DNA from: a virus
Taxonomy: Duplodnaviria > Heunggongvirae > Uroviricota > Caudoviricetes
Virus record (IMG/VR): IMGVR_UViG_2541047748_000013
Direction: 5' to 3' (one strand)
DNA length: 41,069 nucleotides
The notes under the pieces were generated by a model that was not told the origin of the DNA, made no database searches, and was given only the letters and a program-made list of their open reading frames with translations. Position 1 is the first letter of the stretch; each line of letters begins with the position of its first letter. The position numbers and the translations under genes are program-made. Shown piece after piece: positions 532-41,069 of the stretch.

Positions 532-1071
532 ATGAAGAAAGTTTTTCTTTGCGCCATCTTAGCCTCCTTAAGCTATCCGGCTATCGCCTCATCATTGCAG
601 GATCAACTCTCGGCTGTCGCAGAAGCGGAACAGCAAGGTAAAAATGAAGAGCAAAGGCAGCATGACGAATGGGTCGCGGAGCGCAACAGGGAAATCCAGC
701 AAGAGAAGCAACGTCGCGCAAACGCCCAGGCCGCGGCTAATAAAAGAGCGGCAACGGCAGCAGCGAATAAGAAAGCTCGTCAGGATAAACTGGACGCCGA
801 AGCCACTGCGGACAAAAAACGCGATCAAAGTTATGAAGATGAGCTACGTAGCTTAGAGATTCAGAAACAAAAACTGGCGCTGGCGAAAGAAGAAGCCCGC
901 GTCAAGCGCGAAAACGAATTTATCGATCAGGAACTGAAGCACAAAGCTGCGCAAACCGATGTGGTGCAATCTGAAGCTGACGCAAACAGAAATATGACTG
1001 AAGGCGGTCGCGATCTGATGAAAAGCGTGGGTAAAGCAGAAGAGAATAAATCAGATAGCTGGTTTAACTAA
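532..1071 (+). CDS. Secreted charged coiled-coil protein of unknown function
   Basis: RBS AGGAGG about 7 nt upstream of ATG; N-terminal signal peptide (AIASS); K/E/Q/R/A-rich low-complexity body; 16 bp after previous gene. Confidence 0.55.
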   Translation: MKKVFLCAILASLSYPAIASSLQDQLSAVAEAEQQGKNEEQRQHDEWVAERNREIQQEKQRRANAQAAANKRAATAAANKKARQDKLDAEATADKKRDQSYEDELRSLEIQKQKLALAKEEARVKRENEFIDQELKHKAAQTDVVQSEADANRNMTEGGRDLMKSVGKAEENKSDSWFN

Positions 1072-1108
1072 ACGATGTTAGTAACTTCAAACCTATAATT
1101 CTTTAGGA

Positions 1109-1143
1109 TAAAAAAACCCTCTGTAGTAACAGAGGGTTTTGTT
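1109..1143. terminator. Bidirectional intrinsic terminator between the lipoprotein pair and the lysis cassette
   Basis: A-run, stem CCCTCTG/CAGAGGG, T-run (aaaaaaaccctctgtagtaacagagggttttgtt). Confidence 0.6.
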
Positions 1144-1289
1144 CATTCATAGTGCAGGGTCAAATCATTCCCACTCAATTATTTACGATAACCATAACCA
1201 ATTGAGTGATAACATTTTTCCAAATCTCAATTTTTCCCGTACCGTTTTATATACCGTCACCGGAAATCAGTACCATGAAAAATGCCATG

Positions 1290-1772
1290 CTATCTGGTCA
1301 AAGTGTCGTACTGTTTTTCGCAGACTCTTCCGGCTTCGGCTGCCCGGTCAGCATACTCTGCCAGTTGTCTGTTTCTCTCGAGAGATTTGCTGAGCACGTC
1401 GGCAAGCAAAACTCCGGTGTCTGCGGCTGACGACCCAGCGCCGACAATGGCGTTATACTGCCTGAGCTGCTCACGGATGGCAAAGAGTTGTTGCTGCAAC
1501 CGGCCAGCGCTAGCGGCAGCATCAAGAGCATCATTGCGCGCCTGGTCGATCCTCTGCTGAGCTTCACGTTCATTGGTCACTTTCTCCTGTTCGTAGTACT
1601 GACGAACTTTGTCTTCTTCGGCTTTGCGGTCTTCTTCCGCCTGAGCATACCCGGCATCGTACTGGCGACTGCCGTGTATATTCCAGGCAACCACTCCTGA
1701 TATGACCAGAACAGCAAACACTGCCACGATAAGAAACTGTTTCCAGTATGCTTTTACGAATGCCCAGATCAT
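1290..1772 (-). CDS. Rz-like i-spanin
   Basis: N-terminal TM helix, charged coiled-coil periplasmic body, immediately downstream of endolysin with 4-nt overlap; contains an embedded out-of-frame lipoprotein ORF. Confidence 0.7.
1298..1534 (-). CDS. Rz1-like o-spanin lipoprotein embedded within Rz in another frame
   Basis: Lipobox LALAGC, Pro-rich mature part, fully embedded in the Rz reading frame; start chosen at internal Met pair, start uncertain. Confidence 0.5.
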   Translation of the reverse strand: MMLLMLPLALAGCSNNSLPSVSSSGSITPLSALGRQPQTPEFCLPTCSANLSRETDNWQSMLTGQPKPEESAKNSTTL

Positions 1773-2398
1773 ACCGCCAGCACCTTACTGGCAGTGATGT
1801 ACCGCGCTCGCCGGTCGTCGATGCCGTTCCGGCCACCATTGATAATCAGAGTTACACGTGCAATATCGCCGGTATACTTCATGCATCCTTTGCTGGCGAA
1901 GAACCACGCCGCGCTACGAGCCGCATATCCGTCCTGCGCCAGCAGTTCAGGGCTCTCCAGCAGGTCAACCTTCAGACCGTTTCCGCAATCACGATAGTTA
2001 TTCAAACCGGTAATCTGGATAAGTCCGCGCCCTCGGTAATTCCAGCCATCACCAGGGGCATTGTTCCCCATGCGTTTGCTGTATACCAGATTTGCGATCG
2101 CGCGCTGGCGCTCAAGTGGCAATGGTGGTTCACCAGCACGGCGCCCCAGTGCATTAGCCTGCCCCTGAGTGAGACGCCCAGCCCGAACGAAGTTAGCCAG
2201 TCCGCTGACACTGTAGTTGAAATTCTCCTGCAACCTGGTGAAGCCCCCAGACTCATGCCCGACTTGAGCAATAAACATTGCCTGATCTTCTGCTTTGCTG
2301 ATACCAAACTCTTTCATCGCAGAAGTTATATGCGAGAACCAGCGTGCGGCCAGTGCCTCGCTGATACCAGCAGCTCGCTGGAATTGTTTAATCTCCAT
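1769..2398 (-). CDS. Endolysin, glycoside hydrolase family 19 (chitinase-like lysozyme)
   Basis: Motifs QVGHESGGF and [12 protein letters not shown] typical of GH19; start placed at ATG (MEIKQ) with GAGG RBS 8 nt upstream rather than the longer listed ORF. Confidence 0.85.
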
Positions 2399-2696
2399 GT
2401 TTAGACCTCGATACTTTAAAAATTTGAACGACGTTACCGCGCGTTTTAATAACCGCAGCCAGCATGACAGCGTTGATAATGACCTCAGATAAATCCACAG
2501 CCATTGGCGTACGTAACCAGATTGCATAGGCGACTCGAACAGGAATACTGGCCGCAGCAACAATCAGGAAATAAGCAAGCCATCCTCCCCACCTTCGATG
2601 TTGAGAGCCGTTACGCCGGAATGTGACAACGCGAATTGCTATGCCAGTGCAAATAACTGCATTGGTGATAAGCAAAAAAAACTCATGCGTTACCAT
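2388..2696 (-). CDS. Lysis-cassette membrane protein (holin/antiholin-like)
   Basis: 102 aa with 2-3 predicted hydrophobic helices, positioned between putative holin and endolysin. Confidence 0.45.
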
Positions 2697-3087
2697 CGTC
2701 TTTTCTCCCCGGAATTAACTCGCGTGGATTATCGGAACGGTGATAGAGCCATATACCAATACGCACAGCGACAATTGCTGACACGAATGCGCCTGCAGAG
2801 AAAACAATCCCTTTTTCAAAAGAGTCCTGCGTGATGGTAGGGATCAGGCTGGCTATGCCGATAAGAATTGATGCTGCTGGTTTGTAAAAGAGAAGGCCGC
2901 AAAGAAAGCTGAGCATCGACAGGAGCACCCGGCGACGGATGGGGTACTCTACTGCAGAGGTAACAAAAATTACCGCCCCAGCCAAAGCCCCTAAAGCAAC
3001 CTCCGGAGGGACACCTGCAATAACCGCAGCAAGAGAACCAAAACTAAGCAACTGATTTAATTGCTCACTTGTTACTTGAGCAGACAT
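2683..3087 (-). CDS. Putative holin
   Basis: 134 aa, several hydrophobic helices, charged C-terminus, first gene of the lysis cassette. Confidence 0.5.
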   Translation of the reverse strand: MSAQVTSEQLNQLLSFGSLAAVIAGVPPEVALGALAGAVIFVTSAVEYPIRRRVLLSMLSFLCGLLFYKPAASILIGIASLIPTITQDSFEKGIVFSAGAFVSAIVAVRIGIWLYHRSDNPRELIPGRKDDGNA

Positions 3088-3368
3088 ACTTTCTCCTGTT
3101 TACTATCTATAAGCCAGTCAATTATTGATGACTAACCCCGCATAGTAAACCATATATGAATCATTATTGTTCCATATCATATATCTCAATAAAAGTACTA
3201 ATGATTTTACAGAACGAGCCAGCAGAGTGGGGGCAGTTGTACAGGAACCATAGACTTAATTTTGTATTTAATAATGCTATGGTGTAATAAACCTGAACAT
3301 GTATTTAAAATACGTACTGATTCATGATAGAATTCAAAGATAACTTTTCACAAACTCCGTTTTTGATA

Positions 3369-3395
3369 CCCGCAAAATATTGCGGGCTTTTTTTT
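3369..3395 (+). terminator. Hairpin plus T8 run in plus orientation abutting the tailspike stop
   Basis: cccgcaaaatattgcggg followed by ctttttttt; no U-run in the minus orientation. Confidence 0.35.
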
Positions 3396-6300
3396 AACGT
3401 TCTTCCAGAGACTGAATCCGCTCTTTTATCTTATCCATTTCTCTGCGCTGCCATGCTGCCTCGATATAGAATAAGAGATCAGGTCTGACCCCCCATCTAG
3501 ATCCTGCTGGCGTTATTTCAACGCGCTCAATGATGTCTTCCATTACCATCACTGGATTATCATCCTCATCAACAATGATGCTCCCGTCATTATCAGTCAG
3601 CGGCATTTCCCTTTGGCCAGTAATGACGTCATCATATACTGCGGGATAATCGTCATAGCAAAGAAAGGCATAGCGGCATGTTGTGCTTTCTTCTTCCATG
3701 AGTCCGTGAGAAATAAGAACATCACGAAGTTGCTGCGCGATTACACCATGATGTATCCTCGCCCCTTCTTCCCCCTTTATAGCGACAGCGTTCAGCCATT
3801 TATAAGCGATATACCTGACGTCACCCCAGGCATCCAGCAATGCTTCGTCAGGAGAGACCGGCTCTGTCTTTAATGTTCCGTCACTGGTAACCACAGGATT
3901 GGAGCCAAGATAAACTGTCGAGAACCTGTTTCCCGGACCACCAAGAGCATTTACATTATCAAGATAAGGTTTAACATCTCCGTTCTCAAAAAGATGTTCG
4001 AGTGCGTTATATACCGCGCGACGTGGAGTACTGCTTCCGGAACCATGCAACGTTATCATTGCACCATCTGCTGAAGACGTTGTTTCACCGCCGCTAACGA
4101 TTAATCTCTGAGCGGTAACATCATCAGACGGTACTTTCTTCGCAATAATGGCGTAATTACCCTCAAGTTTGACTTCCGCGCGAACTTGTCCTGATGTACC
4201 TGCATGGACAGTCAGTGACTGGACGGCAACATCATCTGTGAAATCAACGGGTACAGGAACCGTCCTCACGCCTGACGTCGACATAAAAGTAGGAAGCGTT
4301 CTGTTAGGAGTGGCTCCGTAGACAAAATCCCTTGAAACAAATTCTTCCTGTTTAATTTTCACCCTGAAACAATACAAATCAGCCGGGTGACCATCGTGAA
4401 CATAAGGATATTTTCTGTTGTTATCCCCTATGCTCCATGGGTTTAGAAAGTCTTCCCCACCGAAAATGTAGTACAGCCAGTTGTCTTTGATACAAACTGA
4501 ACCAACACCAACCGCAGAGTTAACTATTCCGCCCTGATAAATCTGATCAGTAACATTAACCCACTCTACATTATCCAGACTCCACTCATTGACGTTAACT
4601 CTGGTCATAAATGTTCTTGGATAATTTCCTGCATAACGGTTATCAGGTTCTCCTCCTTCCCACTCACCAAATGCGCGCTCACTGCCAAAAATAATCAGCT
4701 CATCGCCAACTTTGGCAAAAGGAAGGTTTGAGTGATGAACATTATTTGGGAAGCGAAGAGAATTCCATGATGTACCTAAATCAGAGCTTCTGTGCAATGA
4801 ACTACCGGGTTGAGTACTTAATGTCCCCCTGGTCGTCAGATACAGAATGCCATCATAATATTTTACACATGGCTCAGATGCATTCGCCTCATATTCTACA
4901 GGTATGCGTCTGCGAACAAAGCTACCAGGAGAACCGAAAGCATCAGAGAAATAGAGTATCCCAAGCTCGCGTGGACCAATATCACCATTATGGTAGCCAA
5001 CAGCAAAACTGTTATCGCTAATCGTCGCAAAACTGTGAATCTCAGTAACAGGAGTGCTTCCGTCAACAAAAGAAGGAATAGTTCCAAGACTGGTTTTTCT
5101 CCATGGTGACGAGTGAAATGATGTACCAAAACTCCAGTATCTACCCTCGTTATTCTGATCCACATCCTGGGTATTTTGCGTCGTAACTGTAAAAGTATTT
5201 TTATCAATAACAGTAGTCACCGTCATATTCCCGGTAACACCTGTAACACCAGAGTTTGAGAAGTTGACAAAATCACCAGCAAATAATCCGTGATCAGTAA
5301 TGCGAATATAAGCGACTTGCTGATTTGCTGCTTTCGTTATACCACCATAAACGCGAAGGCTGCGACTCATTGGGCGATCCCACAACTCTGCAACCTGCAG
5401 TTTATTTCCGCTCACGGTCCGCGTCTCAATTACAGCAAAAAGGCGATTTCTGACAACCCCCATACTCATGCAGTGATAGTTAACTGTGGGATAGTTTTCA
5501 TGTAAATCTGTAAGCCATTCCGGCGTTGTCCAGGTCTTCCCGTCATCTCCTGAGCGAACCCATGCAACATGGAGGTTATTTACACCATGGCGGTCTCCAG
5601 CCATAAAAGGCGCATAGATGACATTGTCATATACAAACGTTTTATCCTGCGTCCAGGCGTTGTACCACGGTGTATCTGTAATTTTAAATAACTCTCCCTG
5701 GATAAAATCTTCAGAAGCATAAAAAAGAGGCTGGCCCGGTATTCTCTCAAATAAAAAACGAGCATTTTTAAATCGACTGACATCCGGAAGAGTTGATACT
5801 TTAAAAGTAAGCCCTAATCCGTCAATTTTATAACCTGGAGATGAGGCTTCAAGGCACGCGCTTATTGCAGTGGAATCGTCATTTATACCATCACCAACAG
5901 CTCCAAAATCTTTGGGGCTAATAGCATCACGCATTTTATCCTGGAACGTTCGGTACACAGCCCCAGAACCATACTGAATAAACCAACCAAAACCACCAAC
6001 AACCCCGGCGATTGCAGCATCGACATAATTACGCATTGAGCGATTATTTACAGCGTCCTGCTCAAATGATGGATCTGCAAGGTTAGAAATTTTGTTTTGC
6101 TTTGCATCGTAATATTTTGCAAGCAAAGATGGTTTCATCAATGCACGTCTGAACCACCCAAAACATTGCTGGATCAGCATCGTCAGGTAGTCAAAGGCAT
6201 CTTCATGCACTTCGGGGAAAAATTTTCCCTGATTGCGAAGGTCTGTCTCCTGCACTACATCAAGCACACGATCTATCGTAATTCGCCATCCAGTAGCAAG

Positions 6301-6513
6301 CGGAGACGGAAGAACCACAGAACCGCCACTATAAGTGCCCGCCCCAGTTACCGTATAACCGGTATCCAGAACCAATTCTGTTACGTTCCCGTTCAGGTCA
6401 GACACCTGAACAACCAGGTCTGATTTTCTGAAAATTCGAAAAGTATACGGAAACGATGTCGTAACGCCGTTACCGGTGTATTCGTTGTGGTCAACTTCGG
6501 TTGAGACCGTCAT
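3394..6513 (-). CDS. Tailspike/tail fiber: T7 gp17-like N-terminal adaptor, sialidase-like Asp-box beta-propeller, C-terminal S74-type intramolecular chaperone
   Basis: N-terminus resembles podovirus tail-fiber anchoring domain; Asp-boxes SGDDGKTW and SSDLGTSW; DFGAVGDGINDD motif; C-terminal SDGTLKT...HGVIAQQL region resembles autoproteolytic chaperone domain. Confidence 0.8.
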   Translation of the reverse strand: MTVSTEVDHNEYTGNGVTTSFPYTFRIFRKSDLVVQVSDLNGNVTELVLDTGYTVTGAGTYSGGSVVLPSPLATGWRITIDRVLDVVQETDLRNQGKFFPEVHEDAFDYLTMLIQQCFGWFRRALMKPSLLAKYYDAKQNKISNLADPSFEQDAVNNRSMRNYVDAAIAGVVGGFGWFIQYGSGAVYRTFQDKMRDAISPKDFGAVGDGINDDSTAISACLEASSPGYKIDGLGLTFKVSTLPDVSRFKNARFLFERIPGQPLFYASEDFIQGELFKITDTPWYNAWTQDKTFVYDNVIYAPFMAGDRHGVNNLHVAWVRSGDDGKTWTTPEWLTDLHENYPTVNYHCMSMGVVRNRLFAVIETRTVSGNKLQVAELWDRPMSRSLRVYGGITKAANQQVAYIRITDHGLFAGDFVNFSNSGVTGVTGNMTVTTVIDKNTFTVTTQNTQDVDQNNEGRYWSFGTSFHSSPWRKTSLGTIPSFVDGSTPVTEIHSFATISDNSFAVGYHNGDIGPRELGILYFSDAFGSPGSFVRRRIPVEYEANASEPCVKYYDGILYLTTRGTLSTQPGSSLHRSSDLGTSWNSLRFPNNVHHSNLPFAKVGDELIIFGSERAFGEWEGGEPDNRYAGNYPRTFMTRVNVNEWSLDNVEWVNVTDQIYQGGIVNSAVGVGSVCIKDNWLYYIFGGEDFLNPWSIGDNNRKYPYVHDGHPADLYCFRVKIKQEEFVSRDFVYGATPNRTLPTFMSTSGVRTVPVPVDFTDDVAVQSLTVHAGTSGQVRAEVKLEGNYAIIAKKVPSDDVTAQRLIVSGGETTSSADGAMITLHGSGSSTPRRAVYNALEHLFENGDVKPYLDNVNALGGPGNRFSTVYLGSNPVVTSDGTLKTEPVSPDEALLDAWGDVRYIAYKWLNAVAIKGEEGARIHHGVIAQQLRDVLISHGLMEEESTTCRYAFLCYDDYPAVYDDVITGQREMPLTDNDGSIIVDEDDNPVMVMEDIIERVEITPAGSRWGVRPDLLFYIEAAWQRREMDKIKERIQSLEER

Positions 6514-6617
6514 GTTAAATCTCCAGATAGTCGCAGCACCCGTTGCGCCGCATATCTGGTTATTCTATTACCTGAAAAACCACATATGGATAGAAAGACT
6601 GTAAATACGAATAGATA

Positions 6618-8092: not shown

Positions 8093-8113
8093 AGTCGATT
8101 GGTTGAGGTTCAT

Positions 8114-8440
8114 ATGAGCAGAAGATATGTCAAGGAGCTGGCTATAGAGTCTGGCACCCCTTTGGGTATCGTTCCTGGCTCCAACTATGCCAAGGCTTTA
8201 AACCGAGACTCTGTCGTCAAAGTTATATCAAGAGACATGAATATGGTCGGAGACGATCTCAGACGGTCAGAAAATCGTGTTTATGCTGAATATATAGTAA
8301 AGAACGGAAAAAAAATTGCAGCGCCTGCTGGCGGAAAATGGGCAATAGTGACAGGGAAAAACTCAAATGCAAGAGGAAAACCAGAAGCTAAAGGAATGTC
8401 CTTCGACAAATATGCAAAAATCTATTGGGCAACCAAGTGA
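8114..8440 (+). CDS. Hypothetical protein (moron operon gene 1)
   Basis: ATG with GAGG RBS 5-6 nt upstream; 109 aa basic protein, no family recognised. Confidence 0.45.
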   Translation: MSRRYVKELAIESGTPLGIVPGSNYAKALNRDSVVKVISRDMNMVGDDLRRSENRVYAEYIVKNGKKIAAPAGGKWAIVTGKNSNARGKPEAKGMSFDKYAKIYWATK

Positions 8441-26129: not shown

Positions 26130-26206
26130 GTGGCATTAGCTCAGTTGGACAGAGCAACCGCCTTCTAAGCGGTTGGTCGCAGGTTCGAATCCTGCATGCC
26201 ACGCCA
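26130..26206 (+). tRNA. tRNA-Arg (anticodon UCU)
   Basis: Manual cloverleaf: acceptor GTGGCAT/ATGCCAC, D-stem GCTC/GAGC, anticodon stem ACCGC/GCGGT with loop CTTCTAA, T-arm GCAGG-TTCGAAT-CCTGC, discriminator G, encoded CCA. Confidence 0.9.
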
Positions 26207-34846: not shown

Positions 34847-35008
34847 ATGCAGTGGAAAATCATCAACGGTTGGTACTGCGTTACTGCATGCGGATTCATG
34901 AGCTGGAAGTTCCGCACCTTACAGGAAGGCATTAAGTGGGCTTTCGTCAGCAAAGAAGCTCGCGATGTGGCAAACGATAACGAGATATGGGAGGAGGTTA
35001 GCAAATGA
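34847..35008 (+). CDS. Small Trp-rich protein, first gene of early-left operon
   Basis: 53-codon ORF not in supplied track; GAGGT RBS 7 nt upstream; stop overlaps next start (ATGA). Confidence 0.4.
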   Translation: MQWKIINGWYCVTACGFMSWKFRTLQEGIKWAFVSKEARDVANDNEIWEEVSK

Positions 35009-36039
35009 GTGAATTATCAATCATCGAAATCACACCAGATATGGCACCAAGAATTTACGTTGAAAAAGGACTAGAAAAGTTTCTCGAGCAGATCCGCGAA
35101 GGTGTTAATGAAGTGCCTGACATTAGCACAGACAAAGGAAGAAAGCGCATTGCATCTCTGGCTGCGAAGGTTTCAAGAAGTAAAACAGCGGTAGAAAAAC
35201 CAGGACGTGATTATCTGAAACGCCTGAAAGAACAGCCGAAAGTAGTTGAAGCAGAGTTGCGACGCTTCGTAACCGAATGCGATCGGCTTCGTGATGAAGT
35301 ACGCCGCCCACTCACCGAGTGGGAAAATGCTGAGAAATTACGCACTGAAGCACTGCAACAACGCCTGACAAATTTGCGAGCACTGGCTGACGTGATCGAT
35401 CTCTCCGGAAACTACTTGCCATCATCTGATATTCAGGAACGAATTCAAGAGGCTAAATCAGTAGCACTTGATGAAAGTTGGCAGGAGTACGCAGCAGAAG
35501 CTGGAGTAGCCAAGGATTCAACCATCCAGAAACTGGAAGAATCACTCGCAGTAGCTCAAAAACGCGAGCATGAAGCCGCTGAGCTGGAGCGACTTCGCAA
35601 AGAAGCGGAGGAAAAAGCGCGCATTGAGCGAGAAGAGAATATCCGCCGGGAAGCTGCTGAACAGGCCAGGCTCGAAGCTGAACAAAAAGCGAAAGCTGAA
35701 ATTGATGCTGCGGCACGCCTGGCGGCGGAAGAAAAAGCACGTGCTGAAGTAGCAGAACGTCAGCGAATTGAAGCAGAGCAGCGTGCACGACGCGAAAAAG
35801 AAGAAGCCGTTGCCGAGGAACGCCGACGCCAAGAGGCGGAAGAAAAAGCCCGCCTTGACGAACAGAAGCGTATCGCCGACGAAGAAGCGCGCCGAGCTGC
35901 AGATAAAGAGCATCGCCGTACCGTTAACCGCAGAGTAATCGCAGATCTGATAGCCCAAGGCATTCCCGAAGAATTCGCGCAGAAAGCAATGTTGGCTATC
36001 GCTGGCGGCAAAGTGCAGGACGCGTATATCAAATATTGA
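35005..36039 (+). CDS. Coiled-coil protein with long EAR/K-rich repeat region, unknown function
   Basis: 344 aa; about 120-aa N-terminal domain followed by charged Ala/Glu/Arg/Lys low-complexity region. Confidence 0.55.
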   Translation: MSELSIIEITPDMAPRIYVEKGLEKFLEQIREGVNEVPDISTDKGRKRIASLAAKVSRSKTAVEKPGRDYLKRLKEQPKVVEAELRRFVTECDRLRDEVRRPLTEWENAEKLRTEALQQRLTNLRALADVIDLSGNYLPSSDIQERIQEAKSVALDESWQEYAAEAGVAKDSTIQKLEESLAVAQKREHEAAELERLRKEAEEKARIEREENIRREAAEQARLEAEQKAKAEIDAAARLAAEEKARAEVAERQRIEAEQRARREKEEAVAEERRRQEAEEKARLDEQKRIADEEARRAADKEHRRTVNRRVIADLIAQGIPEEFAQKAMLAIAGGKVQDAYIKY

Positions 36040-36040
36040 G

Positions 36041-36346
36041 GTGGGTATGAACGTTAATCAGCAGAAAAATCTTCAAAAAATCATGCTGGCATTCGACAAG
36101 GACTACCGCCTGTCAGAACAGCTATATGACCGACAAGTTGAACTGATCGATAGCATCCGGCTTCATCAACTGGCCTCAACTTTTGACGCTGTAACAGGCA
36201 AAGGAGTTCGCCAGGAAGTGCTGGAGGCTGCTAAAGACAGCCCTGAGTTCGAAGAACTGACAGATTCCTACCGGCGCGAGGCAATGGCAATTATCGCACG
36301 CTGGGATCTGGCGGATCGGATTGATGGGCAGAGGGAAGCGGCATGA
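36041..36346 (+). CDS. Hypothetical protein preceding the exonuclease
   Basis: 101 aa; 1-nt gap from previous gene, 4-nt overlap with next. Confidence 0.5.
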   Translation: MGMNVNQQKNLQKIMLAFDKDYRLSEQLYDRQVELIDSIRLHQLASTFDAVTGKGVRQEVLEAAKDSPEFEELTDSYRREAMAIIARWDLADRIDGQREAA

Positions 36347-37242
36347 TGCAGAACGCTGGAATCATGGATAGAACAAAATACATCGGAGGAAGCGATGTTG
36401 CAGGGATTCTTGGAATTAGCCCATGGCGCACCCCGCTTGAGGTTTATCTGGATAAGGTCCAGCCACGTGTCAAACCAGTAGACCCAAGCAAGCAGAAAGT
36501 TTTCACGCGTGGCCAGCGTATGGAGCCATACGTAATAGACCTGCTTTCTGAGGAAACAGGGATGGAAATCGTTCATCGCGGAAACCGCTATATCCACCGT
36601 GATTACGATTTTATTGCAGCTGAGATCGATGCAGAAGCAGCGTCAGGCGAGAACATTGAGATCAAAACAGTTAGTCCGTTCAAAGCCAAAGAATGGGGAG
36701 AAATCCAGACAGATGCAATTCCTGTGCATTACACGGCCCAGGCCATGCACGGGTTGATGGTTACAAACAAACAGGTATGCGTTTTCGGTGTGCTTATCGG
36801 TGGCGACGACTTCCGAATCTATCGGGTTGAGCGTGATGAAGAAACTATCCAGGCGATCTTAGAAAAAGAAATCGCTTTCTGGGACCGAGTGAAAAATCTT
36901 AACCCGCCGGAAGCTACCAGCGTAAGCGATGTATCGCTGATGTTTGAGAAAGATGCCGGGACAAGTATCGAGGCTGACGGAAAGGCACTCGCACTATTCA
37001 ACGATCTACGAGACATGAAGTCACGCAGAAAATCACTGGAAGAAGAAATAGCTATATCAGAAGAGAAGCTGAAGATGTACATGCAAGAGCACTCAGTCCT
37101 GACCCTGGACGGAAAGCCGCTCTGCACATGGAAATCTCAGATCAGCAACAGATTCGACCAGAAGCTATTCCAGTCAGTACACCCTGAGTTATTCGAAAAA
37201 TTCAAAACAACAACGACACAACGCGTCTTCAGAATGAAGTAA
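36343..37242 (+). CDS. YqaJ-type recombination exonuclease (lambda Exo-like)
   Basis: YIGGSDVAGILG motif and PD-(D/E)xK-like region; immediately upstream of RecT-like gene. Confidence 0.8.
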   Translation: MMQNAGIMDRTKYIGGSDVAGILGISPWRTPLEVYLDKVQPRVKPVDPSKQKVFTRGQRMEPYVIDLLSEETGMEIVHRGNRYIHRDYDFIAAEIDAEAASGENIEIKTVSPFKAKEWGEIQTDAIPVHYTAQAMHGLMVTNKQVCVFGVLIGGDDFRIYRVERDEETIQAILEKEIAFWDRVKNLNPPEATSVSDVSLMFEKDAGTSIEADGKALALFNDLRDMKSRRKSLEEEIAISEEKLKMYMQEHSVLTLDGKPLCTWKSQISNRFDQKLFQSVHPELFEKFKTTTTQRVFRMK

Positions 37243-37251
37243 GGAGAAAAA

Positions 37252-38274
37252 ATGTCTATCAATGCACTTAAGGCAGCGGCTACCGGTAACCAAGTTGCAC
37301 ATCATAATGAGAAACTAACAACTCTGGCCGGACTTCTGGCAGACCCAAAAATTAAAGCTCAGATGGCTTTGGCACTTCCAAAGCACATGACAGCAGACCG
37401 TCTGGCGCGCATAGCAACCACAGAGATCCGAAAGGTTCCAAAACTTGCATCATGCGACCAAGCCAGCTTCCTGGGGGCAATTATGCAATGTGCCCAATTG
37501 GGTCTTGAACCAGGCGGAGCTCTTGGACACGCTTACCTGATACCGTTCGACAAACGCCAGAAAGTAAATGGAAGATGGGAAACCGTATCTACAGAAGCAC
37601 AGCTGATTATCGGCTATCGCGGAATGATTGACCTTGCCCGCCGCTCTGGGCAGATCCTGAGTATCTCGGCTCGTACCGTACATACAAACGACAAATTCAG
37701 CTACTCATACGGCCTGGAAGAAACGCTCGAGCATTTACCTTGCGAAACAGGTGACCGCGGAGAATTAACGCACGTTTACGCCGTTGCACGACTGAAAGAT
37801 GGCGGAGTCCAATTTGAAGTTATGAGCCGGGCAGACATTGAGAAAGTTCGTGCACTGAGCAAAGCCGGTAGCAGTGGCCCATGGGTTGATCACTTCGATG
37901 AGATGGCTAAAAAAACAGTAATTCGCCGACTATTCAAATATCTTCCTGTTTCTATTGAAATGCAGAAGGCTGTTGTTATGGATGAGCGCGCTGAAGCTGG
38001 ACTTAGCCAAGATAACGCAGCTGTTATCACTGGTGAATATTCCGTAGTTGACGATGAGCGTCAACACCTGTCGCCAATTTCAGATTCAGAACGAGAAGAA
38101 GCTCGAGAATATATCATCGCGATACTTAATAGCCTGGATCCATCTGCTGAAGATGCAAAAACGATGTTCAAGCGCGCTGAAAATGAGATTAACACCATGG
38201 CTGAAAAGCTCGGTGATGAATATCACCAAAAATTCATGATGACGCTTAACGATATGCGTCCAGAATTCGAGTAA
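37252..38274 (+). CDS. recT: RecT-family single-strand annealing protein
   Basis: 340 aa; AAGGAG RBS; recalled RecT-like core (GYRGMIDLARRSG). Confidence 0.8.
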   Translation: MSINALKAAATGNQVAHHNEKLTTLAGLLADPKIKAQMALALPKHMTADRLARIATTEIRKVPKLASCDQASFLGAIMQCAQLGLEPGGALGHAYLIPFDKRQKVNGRWETVSTEAQLIIGYRGMIDLARRSGQILSISARTVHTNDKFSYSYGLEETLEHLPCETGDRGELTHVYAVARLKDGGVQFEVMSRADIEKVRALSKAGSSGPWVDHFDEMAKKTVIRRLFKYLPVSIEMQKAVVMDERAEAGLSQDNAAVITGEYSVVDDERQHLSPISDSEREEAREYIIAILNSLDPSAEDAKTMFKRAENEINTMAEKLGDEYHQKFMMTLNDMRPEFE

Positions 38275-39818: not shown

Positions 39819-41069
39819 TTATTCCCCCGCCATCCACTTCTCAAACTTCGACGGGGAGAACGGAATCAGATCCGTATGCTCCCCGTCAATCCATGAATCA
39901 ATCATATCGGCCCACTGCTGCAACATGTAGGCGCGCTGTCTGGCGTATTCCGCTTTGTTATATACGGCGCGCACACCTTTCTGCTCATGTGCCAGAGCCT
40001 TTTCAATCCAGTCTGAAGGATAACCAGCCTCATGCAACAACGTACTGGCTGTACGGCGCATATCATGTACAGTGAAGTCCTGAATATGCTCACCATCTTC
40101 ATTTATTATTTTCACCGTTCTGTCGATCAGAGAGTTCAGCGCGGCATTAGATAATGGCTTCCGGAAATTGTAACGACCAGGAACCAGATATTCACTTCCA
40201 CCAGCGCACATCTGCAACCCGACCAATATATCCTGTGCCTGTTTAGGCAGGTAAATAACGTGCGCCCGGCTTCCCTTCATGCGGTCTGGAGGAATTGTCC
40301 ATGTCCATTTTTTAAAATCTATTTCATCCCACGTTGCATTGGTGAATTCGCCCTTACGAACCATAGTGATAAGCACCAGTTTTAAAGCCATTTTCATAGT
40401 GCCCATAGCACCAATGGCATCCAGCGTGCGGAAGAACAGGCCAATTTCTTCTGGTGTCAGTGTTCGCTCTCGTGGTTTAAATATGGCGATAGACGAAGGT
40501 TTAATGTCAGCCGCAGGATTAAACAAACCATGACCACGGTCATTGGCGTGACGGTATACGCTACTGATGATCTCCCTGGCCTGCACTGCTGTTGCCCGGC
40601 CACCGCGTTCGACAATCCGGTCACACAAATCACGAACCATCGATGTGGTAATTTCAGCCATCATTTTATTGCCAAGAACCGGAAGTATGTCACGGTCGAT
40701 CACCGCCTGTTTCATTGCGCGGGTACTGTCAGCCAGGATGACGTGTTTCATATAACTGTCGGTATGTACCGCAAACGTCTCGGCACCACGAATCTTTTTG
40801 ATACCGTCACGTTTAGCCGCAGCCGGTGACTGGCCTGCTTTAAGCAGCTTCTTTGCAGCAATCAGTTCTTCTCGCGCTTCTGCCAGGCTGATACCGTCAT
40901 GCCCATACTGCCCGATTACCAGTGTTTCGCGGCGACCGTTGATACGGTAGTCATAGCGAAACGAGACCGTGCCTGACGTAAGCACAGCTACATACAGCCC
41001 GTCACGATCGGAGACCTTGTACAGTTTGTCCTGCGGCTTGAGGTTTTTTAATTTTGTATCGGTAAGCAC
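39819..41069 (-). CDS. int: Tyrosine integrase, P4-type; 5' end runs off the window
   Basis: N-terminal LTDTKLKNLKP arm-binding-type motif; C-terminal R...HxxR...Y-type catalytic region (HDMRRTASTLL, VRAVY); ORF open at window edge. Confidence 0.85.
   Translation of the reverse strand: MLTDTKLKNLKPQDKLYKVSDRDGLYVAVLTSGTVSFRYDYRINGRRETLVIGQYGHDGISLAEAREELIAAKKLLKAGQSPAAAKRDGIKKIRGAETFAVHTDSYMKHVILADSTRAMKQAVIDRDILPVLGNKMMAEITTSMVRDLCDRIVERGGRATAVQAREIISSVYRHANDRGHGLFNPAADIKPSSIAIFKPRERTLTPEEIGLFFRTLDAIGAMGTMKMALKLVLITMVRKGEFTNATWDEIDFKKWTWTIPPDRMKGSRAHVIYLPKQAQDILVGLQMCAGGSEYLVPGRYNFRKPLSNAALNSLIDRTVKIINEDGEHIQDFTVHDMRRTASTLLHEAGYPSDWIEKALAHEQKGVRAVYNKAEYARQRAYMLQQWADMIDSWIDGEHTDLIPFSPSKFEKWMAGE

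Follow-up and report, generated by a model that had tools for sequence, protein, structure and literature searches.

The window, by which we mean the whole 41,069-nt stretch of DNA analysed, carries the tailspike gene on its minus strand at 3394..6513 (1039 codons plus stop; predicted precursor 115.7 kDa). These bounds bear out the open reading frame of the preliminary description of this DNA, which left the strand unstated. A Shine-Dalgarno-like GGAG (6521..6524, read 6524-6521 on the minus strand), read off the sequence, precedes the ATG at 6513 by 7 nt. On the other side, a GC-rich hairpin (3369..3386, assigned to neither strand) lies 8 nt downstream of the tailspike stop codon, with an A-run on its gene side and a T-run on its plus-strand side; it may be a candidate terminator. 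A holin/endolysin cassette lies downstream of the tailspike gene, an integrase gene is found at the window's far end, and the window retains terminase, portal, capsid, tail, lysis, and integrase genes. We used PADLOC to look for defence genes in six ORFs, namely four ORFs of unknown function near the tailspike gene and in regions that diverge from phage ZX5, the ORF at 8099-8440 in a ZX5-matched region, and a DUF2335 ORF; it returned zero matches.

Judged from its sequence, the 1039-aa protein is an endosialidase (endo-N-acetylneuraminidase, GH58) tailspike. Four endosialidase Pfam domains (End_N_terminal, End_beta_propel, End_beta_barrel, and End_tail_spike) and Peptidase_S74 all exceed their gathering thresholds, and a PDB sequence search returned K1F endoNF (1v0e/3gvl, E = 0) and the phi92 protein (4hiz, E 2e-271). 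The endosialidase N-terminal extension (5701..5901; aa 205-271; PF12218, E 5.9e-32; on the minus strand, as are all protein features given below) aligns to K1F endoNF from residue 246. It is followed by a six-bladed catalytic beta-propeller (4351..5700; aa 272-721), to which PF12217 aligns over its full profile (1-367), scoring 773 bits (cut-off 24; E 3.7e-233). The beta-propeller glycosidase proposed earlier can thus be named as an endosialidase propeller. A lectin-like beta-barrel domain is inserted within the propeller (5119..5367; aa 383-465; PF12195, E 3.2e-46), and the propeller is followed by a stalk (tail-spike/triple beta-helix) domain (3886..4350; aa 722-876; PF12219, E 8.4e-78). Both Asp-box motifs of the preliminary description are present, SGDDGKTW at 5530..5553 (aa 321-328) and SSDLGTSW at 4765..4788 (aa 576-583), and in the alignment with K1F endoNF each coincides, in every column, with one of that enzyme's two Asp-boxes (362-369 and 610-617, respectively). 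The composition of the protein itself predicts 0.0014 matches to S.D.G.[ST]W.

The propeller carries H309, R515, E547, R562, and R613, which correspond to the K1F active-site residues His350, Arg549, Glu581, Arg596, and Arg647 [roles in K1F: PMC12632334, PMC2955717]; the mapping of R515 was taken from the list of invariant columns in the K1F alignment. K1F endoNF (gp17; 1v0e/3gvl and 3gw6) has the same architecture from the N-terminal extension through the chaperone domain, with 66% identity over aa 205-876, 70% over the propeller, and 54% over the C-terminal domain, and the two proteins share the catalytic residues, both Asp-boxes, the Ser-Lys dyad, and the equivalent of Arg897. They differ in a 7-aa propeller insertion, FVDGSTP (aa 482-488), and at the position of K1F stalk residue Q853, which is Met819 both here and in the endosialidase of CUS-3, a P22-like prophage. 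We take Q853 to belong to a polysialic-acid site in the K1F stalk. However, Met819 and the insertion are also found in the active CUS-3 enzyme; therefore, neither counts against activity. The capsule-degrading role that had been suggested for the tailspike is the established function of the endosialidase family, and with its domains and catalytic residues kept, we predict the same function here. Catalytically dead endosialidase variants of K1 phage mutants, which bind polysialic acid without cutting it, do exist and serve as polySia probes [review: PMC5380687], but it is hardly credible that this protein is one of them, as H309, R515, E547, R562, and R613 are all kept and one propeller residue separates it from the active CUS-3 enzyme.

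The C-terminus was earlier likened to the S74 intramolecular chaperone, and the likeness proved to be close. The chaperone domain (Peptidase S74; 3397..3885; aa 877-1039, 18.7 kDa) matches PF13884 with 41.4 bits (cut-off 22) over aa 877-937, a stretch that includes both SDGTLKT, which begins at aa 877, and HGVIAQQL, which begins at aa 922. The K1F chaperone domain (3gw6) aligns in the PDB sequence search over aa 757-1038 with E 1.3e-93. The Ser-Lys dyad is kept as S877 (3883-3885) and K882 (3868-3870), equivalents of K1F S911/K916, and R863 in the stalk domain lies in an invariant column as the counterpart of K1F stalk R897; the roles of the dyad and of Arg897 have been described in K1F [PMC8326128]. 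Cleavage between T876 and S877 is predicted to release the domain, giving products with calculated masses of 97.0 and 18.7 kDa.

The tail-anchor module (5902..6513; aa 1-204) consists of a beta-sandwich (aa 9-82) and then helices that, in the trimer, are probably wound into a coiled coil. By sequence matches, it is an epsilon15-like (Uetakevirus)/Carin-1-type tailspike anchor, a module common to spikes with different distal domains. PHROG tail families match aa 1-166 or 1-204 with E 1e-50 to 1e-140 (1e-111 to 1e-140 for aa 1-204), and the PDB sequence search matches aa 1-184 of Dpo31 from the marine podovirus Carin-1 (E 1.5e-32), the nearest structure solved so far. Anchor homologues (n = 182, 53-100% identity) come from E. 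coli, Klebsiella, Salmonella, Enterobacter, Proteus, Morganella, and Serratia, and in phiv142-3 a 98.5% identity is confined to nt 1-582 of the tailspike gene. The D1 beta-sandwich of Dpo31 (PDB 28lx/8ck1) and the start of its D2 coiled coil resemble the anchor (Foldseek E 1e-11, 48% identity), and D1 is placed at the virion base in the Carin-1 virion map. Dpo31 likewise loses an 18-kDa C-terminal domain, whereas its catalytic part, a depolymerase for Cobetia exopolysaccharide, is unrelated.

The N-terminus had also been called T7 gp17-like, which holds for the fold but not for membership of that family by sequence. In the AlphaFold2 model of aa 1-204 (pLDDT about 90 for aa 11-80), Foldseek matches N-terminal chains of T7 gp17 (7boz, 7ey9, and 8dsp) with probability 1.00 (E 2e-5 to 4e-4), and it also matches podovirus fibre N-termini. 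TM-scores against the T7 gp17 chains are 0.34-0.50, low because the helices are badly placed in the monomer model. At the sequence level, Phage_T7_tail (PF03906) reaches 15.9 bits (E 0.011) on the tailspike N-terminus, below its cut-off of 25.2, while K1F itself has a genuine T7 gp17 N-terminus (PF03906 62.9 bits, plus PF18668). BLASTP of the N-terminus against that of K1F was non-significant, and a phmmer search of the PDB with the N-terminus returned no T7 gp17 chain at E<=10. Aligning a 38-sequence anchor profile by hhalign with a K1F-type profile of 10 sequences, shallow because the homologue search yielded close relatives only, gave a probability of 0.6%. Family membership by sequence thus finds no support from Pfam, BLASTP, phmmer, or hhalign, and it is only the comparison of folds that supports a relationship.

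From codon 233 to codon 1026 (3436..5817), the gene consists of an endosialidase cassette that CUS-3 also carries. Of its 2376 nt, 8 depart from CUS-3 siaK1, identity breaks off sharply at both ends, and 449 of the 450 propeller residues are identical to those of SiaK1 (ABQ88383.1). The cassette, residues 233-1026 of the protein studied here, takes in propeller, barrel, stalk, and chaperone domain. Outside the cassette, the two differ: CUS-3 has a P22 gp9-type head-binding domain at its N-terminus, unrelated to the epsilon15/Carin-1-type anchor found here, and they also part over the last ~13 residues and in the DNA downstream. In CUS-3, the phase-variable neuO adjoins the spike. A neuO-like phase-variable capsule O-acetyltransferase beside this tailspike is ruled out, as the downstream genes are holins and an endolysin and Tandem Repeats Finder detected no tandem AAGACTC array of the CUS-3 neuO type in the whole window.

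The preliminary description left the substrate as polysialic acid or another acidic capsule; polysialic acid is upheld, and the predicted specificity can be narrowed to alpha-2,8 polysialic acid (K1). This narrowing follows from the near-identity of the propeller to that of CUS-3, whose GenBank record for SiaK1 gives endo-alpha-sialidase activity with IDA evidence [citing PMID 16689790], and from phage ZX5, which carries a 99.9% identical gene and grows on an O87:H52:K1 strain. Another substrate, such as O-acetylated K1, K92 (alternating alpha-2,8/2,9), or a different acidic capsule, is very unlikely. The divergence from K1F at ~34% of positions in aa 205-876 and the 7-aa insertion would fit such a change, as would a K1F mutational scan suggesting that the choice among K1 hosts is fine-tuned by residues in the barrel and the stalk [PMC12632334]. 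However, the CUS-3 endosialidase with its nearly identical propeller has been characterised on polysialic acid, all of the listed K1F catalytic residues are kept, ZX5 infects a K1 strain, and the listed lysogens belong to K1 lineages.

The closest characterised phage is vB_EcoP_ZX5, a temperate, plaque-forming Uetakevirus isolated on the O87:H52:K1 strain [PMC9782041]. Its ORF7 (QTH80017.1) shares 99.9% nucleotide identity with the tailspike gene over all 3120 bases, with 3 nucleotide differences in the cassette and nothing of substance to separate the two. Window and ZX5 are collinear, with 93.7-99.4% identity in the matched blocks (96% or more in most of them), although some early-region modules differ. 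Near-full-length copies of the tailspike occur in 72 complete E. coli genomes (best match 100% identity), and identical copies are found in K1 ExPEC/APEC genomes, e.g., APEC O1, CE10 (O7:K1), and O1:K1:H7 strains. We therefore consider, with a probability of roughly 95%, that the gene belongs to a ZX5-like (Uetakevirus, epsilon15-like) prophage, which adjoins yfgI/yfgH in an E. coli chromosome, and encodes its receptor-destroying tailspike. This interpretation of the tailspike, in essence that of the preliminary description, is already known: the 2022 ZX5 paper names the same three domains for ORF7 [PMC9782041], and RefSeq annotates the gene as [quoted passage not shown] (e.g., WP_000218907.1 of APEC O1). 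Given the many annotated genome copies and the ZX5 description, the tailspike is an ordinary one.

The gene does sit in a chromosome rather than in a phage isolate, and decayed copies exist elsewhere, including one with an IS3 insertion in FY26 and remnants spanning 7-58% of the cassette. Nonetheless, it is highly improbable that this intact-looking gene is the silent relic of a defective prophage, never assembled into virions: its 1039-codon frame is intact with every functional residue kept, the window is collinear with the viable ZX5 and retains its terminase, portal, capsid, tail, lysis, and integrase genes, and a 100% identical sequence across many independent genomes speaks against decay. 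As a separate observation, about 48 of 5426 complete genomes appear to hold both endosialidase prophage types (by inclusion-exclusion, 72 + 157 - 181), and strain F11 is a direct example of a double prophage.

Two close homologues, K1F endoNF and the CUS-3 enzyme, suggest how the functional tailspike of a ZX5-like prophage would work, and from them we infer trimerisation, self-cleavage, and activity. Three 115.7-kDa chains would assemble into a trimer under the guidance of the chaperone domain at the C-terminus (aa 877-1039). [quoted passage not shown] The beta-sandwich and helical module of aa 1-204 would hold the trimer on the short tail, and the cutting of polysialic acid would open a way for the virion through the K1 capsule and on to the outer membrane.

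Few phage depolymerases have been studied as thoroughly as endosialidase tailspikes, and the exact protein is already correctly named in RefSeq and in a published phage genome with a three-domain description, so this analysis adds little to the known function. In practice, the protein offers a further K1-specific depolymerase with good annotation, of use in capsule typing, the detection of polysialic acid, or anti-capsule therapy. The gene also provides a textbook-clean case of a receptor-binding cassette on a third type of podovirus anchor, the epsilon15-like one, besides the T7-like (K1F) and P22-like (CUS-3) types.

How one cassette came to be carried by different prophages is a more tentative matter. 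Across prophage types, copies of the cassette differ at 4-9 of 2376 nt. Based on these few differences, the sharp junctions, and the ~48 double carriers, we suggest, at somewhat less than even odds, that the 2.4-kb cassette was exchanged very recently between two unrelated prophages, CUS-3 and a ZX5-like Uetakevirus, in one K1 E. coli cell, and that it is maybe still being homogenised by gene conversion. If this is true, co-lysogeny would be where receptor-binding modules pass from one phage genus to another.

The gene under study lies within a prophage. From position ~1163 to its end, the window is collinear with the temperate phage vB_EcoP_ZX5 (Uetakevirus, epsilon15-like), and the matched blocks share 93.7-99.4% identity, most of them at least 96%. 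The left end of the prophage adjoins yfgH and yfgI (1-1071), with homology to ZX5 starting at 1163 and homology to the APEC O1 chromosome running up to 1278. Because the integrase gene (39819-41069) sits at the right edge of the window, the second attachment site lies outside it. Most of the RecE-like/RecT early region of ZX5 is replaced here by a YqaJ-type exonuclease (36343-37242) and RecT (37252-38274), part of a region (34994-38271) that is unlike ZX5. Two further ORFs in this region, 35005-36039 (phrog_1376) and 36041-36346 (phrog_856), are of unknown function; PADLOC gave no match for the early-region ORFs that differ from ZX5. A tRNA-Arg gene (anticodon TCT; 26130-26206, plus strand) lies between the terminase and portal regions; the annotation of the APEC O1 copy includes it as well.

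The long ORF of the window (3394-6513, minus strand) encodes the 1039-aa tailspike, with a GGAG found by inspection 7 nt 5' of its ATG on the gene strand. Read on that strand, genes for large internal and tail proteins lie 5' of it, and genes for two holins, a GH19 endolysin, and a DUF2514 protein lie 3'. Between the tailspike and holin genes is an AT-rich spacer of 306 bp (3088-3393), and a GC-rich hairpin (3369-3386) is located just 3' of the tailspike stop codon.

Pfam identified five domains, all scoring far over curated cut-offs: End_N_terminal (aa 205-271), End_beta_propel (aa 272-721; E 3.7e-233), End_beta_barrel inserted in the propeller (aa 383-465), End_tail_spike (aa 722-876), and Peptidase_S74 (aa 877-937). 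In a PDB sequence search, aa 205-876 matched the crystallised endosialidase of coliphage K1F, endoNF (1v0e, 3gvl), at E = 0. The same search recovered the phi92 endosialidase (4hiz; E 2e-271) and, for aa 757-1038, a K1F stalk-plus-chaperone construct (3gw6; E 1.3e-93). In a three-way alignment, identity to K1F was 66% for aa 205-876 and 54% for the C-terminal domain. So close a match to crystallised proteins leaves no doubt about the propeller and S74 folds. The preliminary description had proposed a beta-propeller glycosidase from two Asp-boxes, and an S74 chaperone from the C-terminal motifs SDGTLKT (from aa 877) and HGVIAQQL (from aa 922); both proposals hold, and the propeller is specifically that of an endosialidase. 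The Asp-boxes, SGDDGKTW (aa 321-328) and SSDLGTSW (aa 576-583), align exactly with the two in endoNF, and two matches to S.D.G.[ST]W are not chance, since 0.0014 would be expected from the composition of the protein.

The functional residues are likewise retained. Residues described as essential in K1F (H350, R549, E581, R596, and R647; PMC12632334; PMC2955717) all align with identical residues here (H309, R515, E547, R562, and R613). The K1F self-cleavage dyad S911/K916 and stalk arginine R897 (PMC8326128) correspond to S877, K882, and R863. The predicted cut between T876 and S877 would split a precursor with a computed mass of 115.7 kDa, leaving a spike of 97.0 kDa and releasing a domain of 18.7 kDa. 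By analogy with work on K1F and CUS-3, a P22-like prophage, we infer that aa 1-204 would hold the mature trimer on the tail, while the propeller, barrel, and stalk would bind alpha-2,8 polysialic acid and cleave it, allowing the virion to cross the K1 capsule.

The N-terminus had been described as T7 gp17-like, which holds for its fold and its tail-attachment role, though not for family membership. Sequence comparison did not assign aa 1-204 to the gp17 family: with a cut-off of 25.2 bits, Pfam Phage_T7_tail scored 15.9 (versus 62.9 bits for K1F, which has a genuine T7-type N-terminus), a BLASTP comparison with the K1F N-terminus was not significant, the PDB sequence search returned no gp17 chain at E<=10, and hhalign of a 38-member N-terminal family profile with a K1F-type profile gave a probability of 0.6%. 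By sequence, this region belongs with other tailspikes: aa 1-166 or 1-204 are matched by PHROG tail families (E 1e-50 to 1e-140), and 182 homologues (53-100% identity), some labelled "head-binding protein," occur in E. coli, Klebsiella, Salmonella, Enterobacter, Proteus, Morganella, and Serratia. The nearest solved structure in the PDB sequence search belongs to Dpo31, a tailspike from the marine podovirus Carin-1 (E 1.5e-32); the D1 beta-sandwich of Dpo31 is located at the virion base in the Carin-1 cryo-EM map (PMC13317679). AlphaFold, given the family alignment, predicts a beta-sandwich with high confidence (aa 9-82; pLDDT ~90) and then three helices. Foldseek ranked Carin-1 first (E 1e-11), followed by fibre N-termini of PhiM1, LME-1, Kp7, Kp9, P-SCSP1u, HRP29, and T7 gp17 (8dsp, 7ey9, and 7boz; E 2e-5 to 4e-4, probability 1.00, 13-16% identity). 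One 277-aa homologue from Kluyvera cryocrescens (P0010) has 80% identity to the anchor plus a PF12218 endosialidase N-terminal extension, a tentative sign that a comparable spike exists beyond Escherichia; being short, the protein may be a fragment.

The tailspike is already known. Its gene shares 99.9% identity with ZX5 ORF7, described as a T7-like tail-fibre N-terminus with an endosialidase and an endosialidase chaperone, in a phage isolated on an O87:H52:K1 strain (PMC9782041). Copies of nearly full length are present in 72 complete E. coli genomes (best 100% identity), including APEC O1, CE10 (O7:K1), and O1:K1:H7 strains, under the RefSeq product name [quoted passage not shown] The preliminary description was thus a correct sequence reading of an annotated, published, and mechanistically understood protein.

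Nucleotides 699-3091 of the gene are 99.5% identical to siaK1 of CUS-3. In pairwise alignment, identity starts abruptly at ~nt 697 and ends at ~nt 3078, delimiting a cassette of codons 233-1026 (window 3436-5817) in which 8 of 2376 positions distinguish the window from CUS-3 of RS218. CUS-3 has a neuO acetyltransferase gene and heptanucleotide repeat beside its spike, whereas none adjoins the spike in the window. For the CUS-3 enzyme, endo-alpha-sialidase activity is backed by direct assay evidence cited in its record, and the two propellers differ by a single residue. This near-identity, together with the intact frame, the conserved functional residues, and the viability of the ZX5 relative, makes it unlikely that the gene belongs to a dead prophage relic, that its substrate has shifted, or that the protein is a binding-only variant.

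Among 5426 complete genomes, 194 contain the cassette, nearly full-length in 181. Decayed endosialidase genes also exist in other E. coli lysogens, one with an IS3 insertion (strain FY26), and remnants in some genomes span only 7-58% of the cassette. With the ZX5-type gene in 72 genomes and the CUS-3-type junction in 157, we estimate that ~48 of the 5426 carry both prophage types (72 + 157 - 181). E. coli F11 (NZ_CM184318.1) has both, ~185 kb apart (loci L022, 1962-4907, and L023, 1224-4343), with 4 differences in 2376 nt between its two cassettes, versus the 8 between the window and RS218. Many K1 genomes seem to have two endosialidase prophages, one CUS-3-type and one ZX5-type, and recombination or gene conversion between prophages sharing a genome may account for this pattern. 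For K1F and CUS-3, it has long been described that a single catalytic cassette can sit on different tail anchors (reviewed in PMC5380687), and the tailspike here extends that series by an epsilon15-type anchor.
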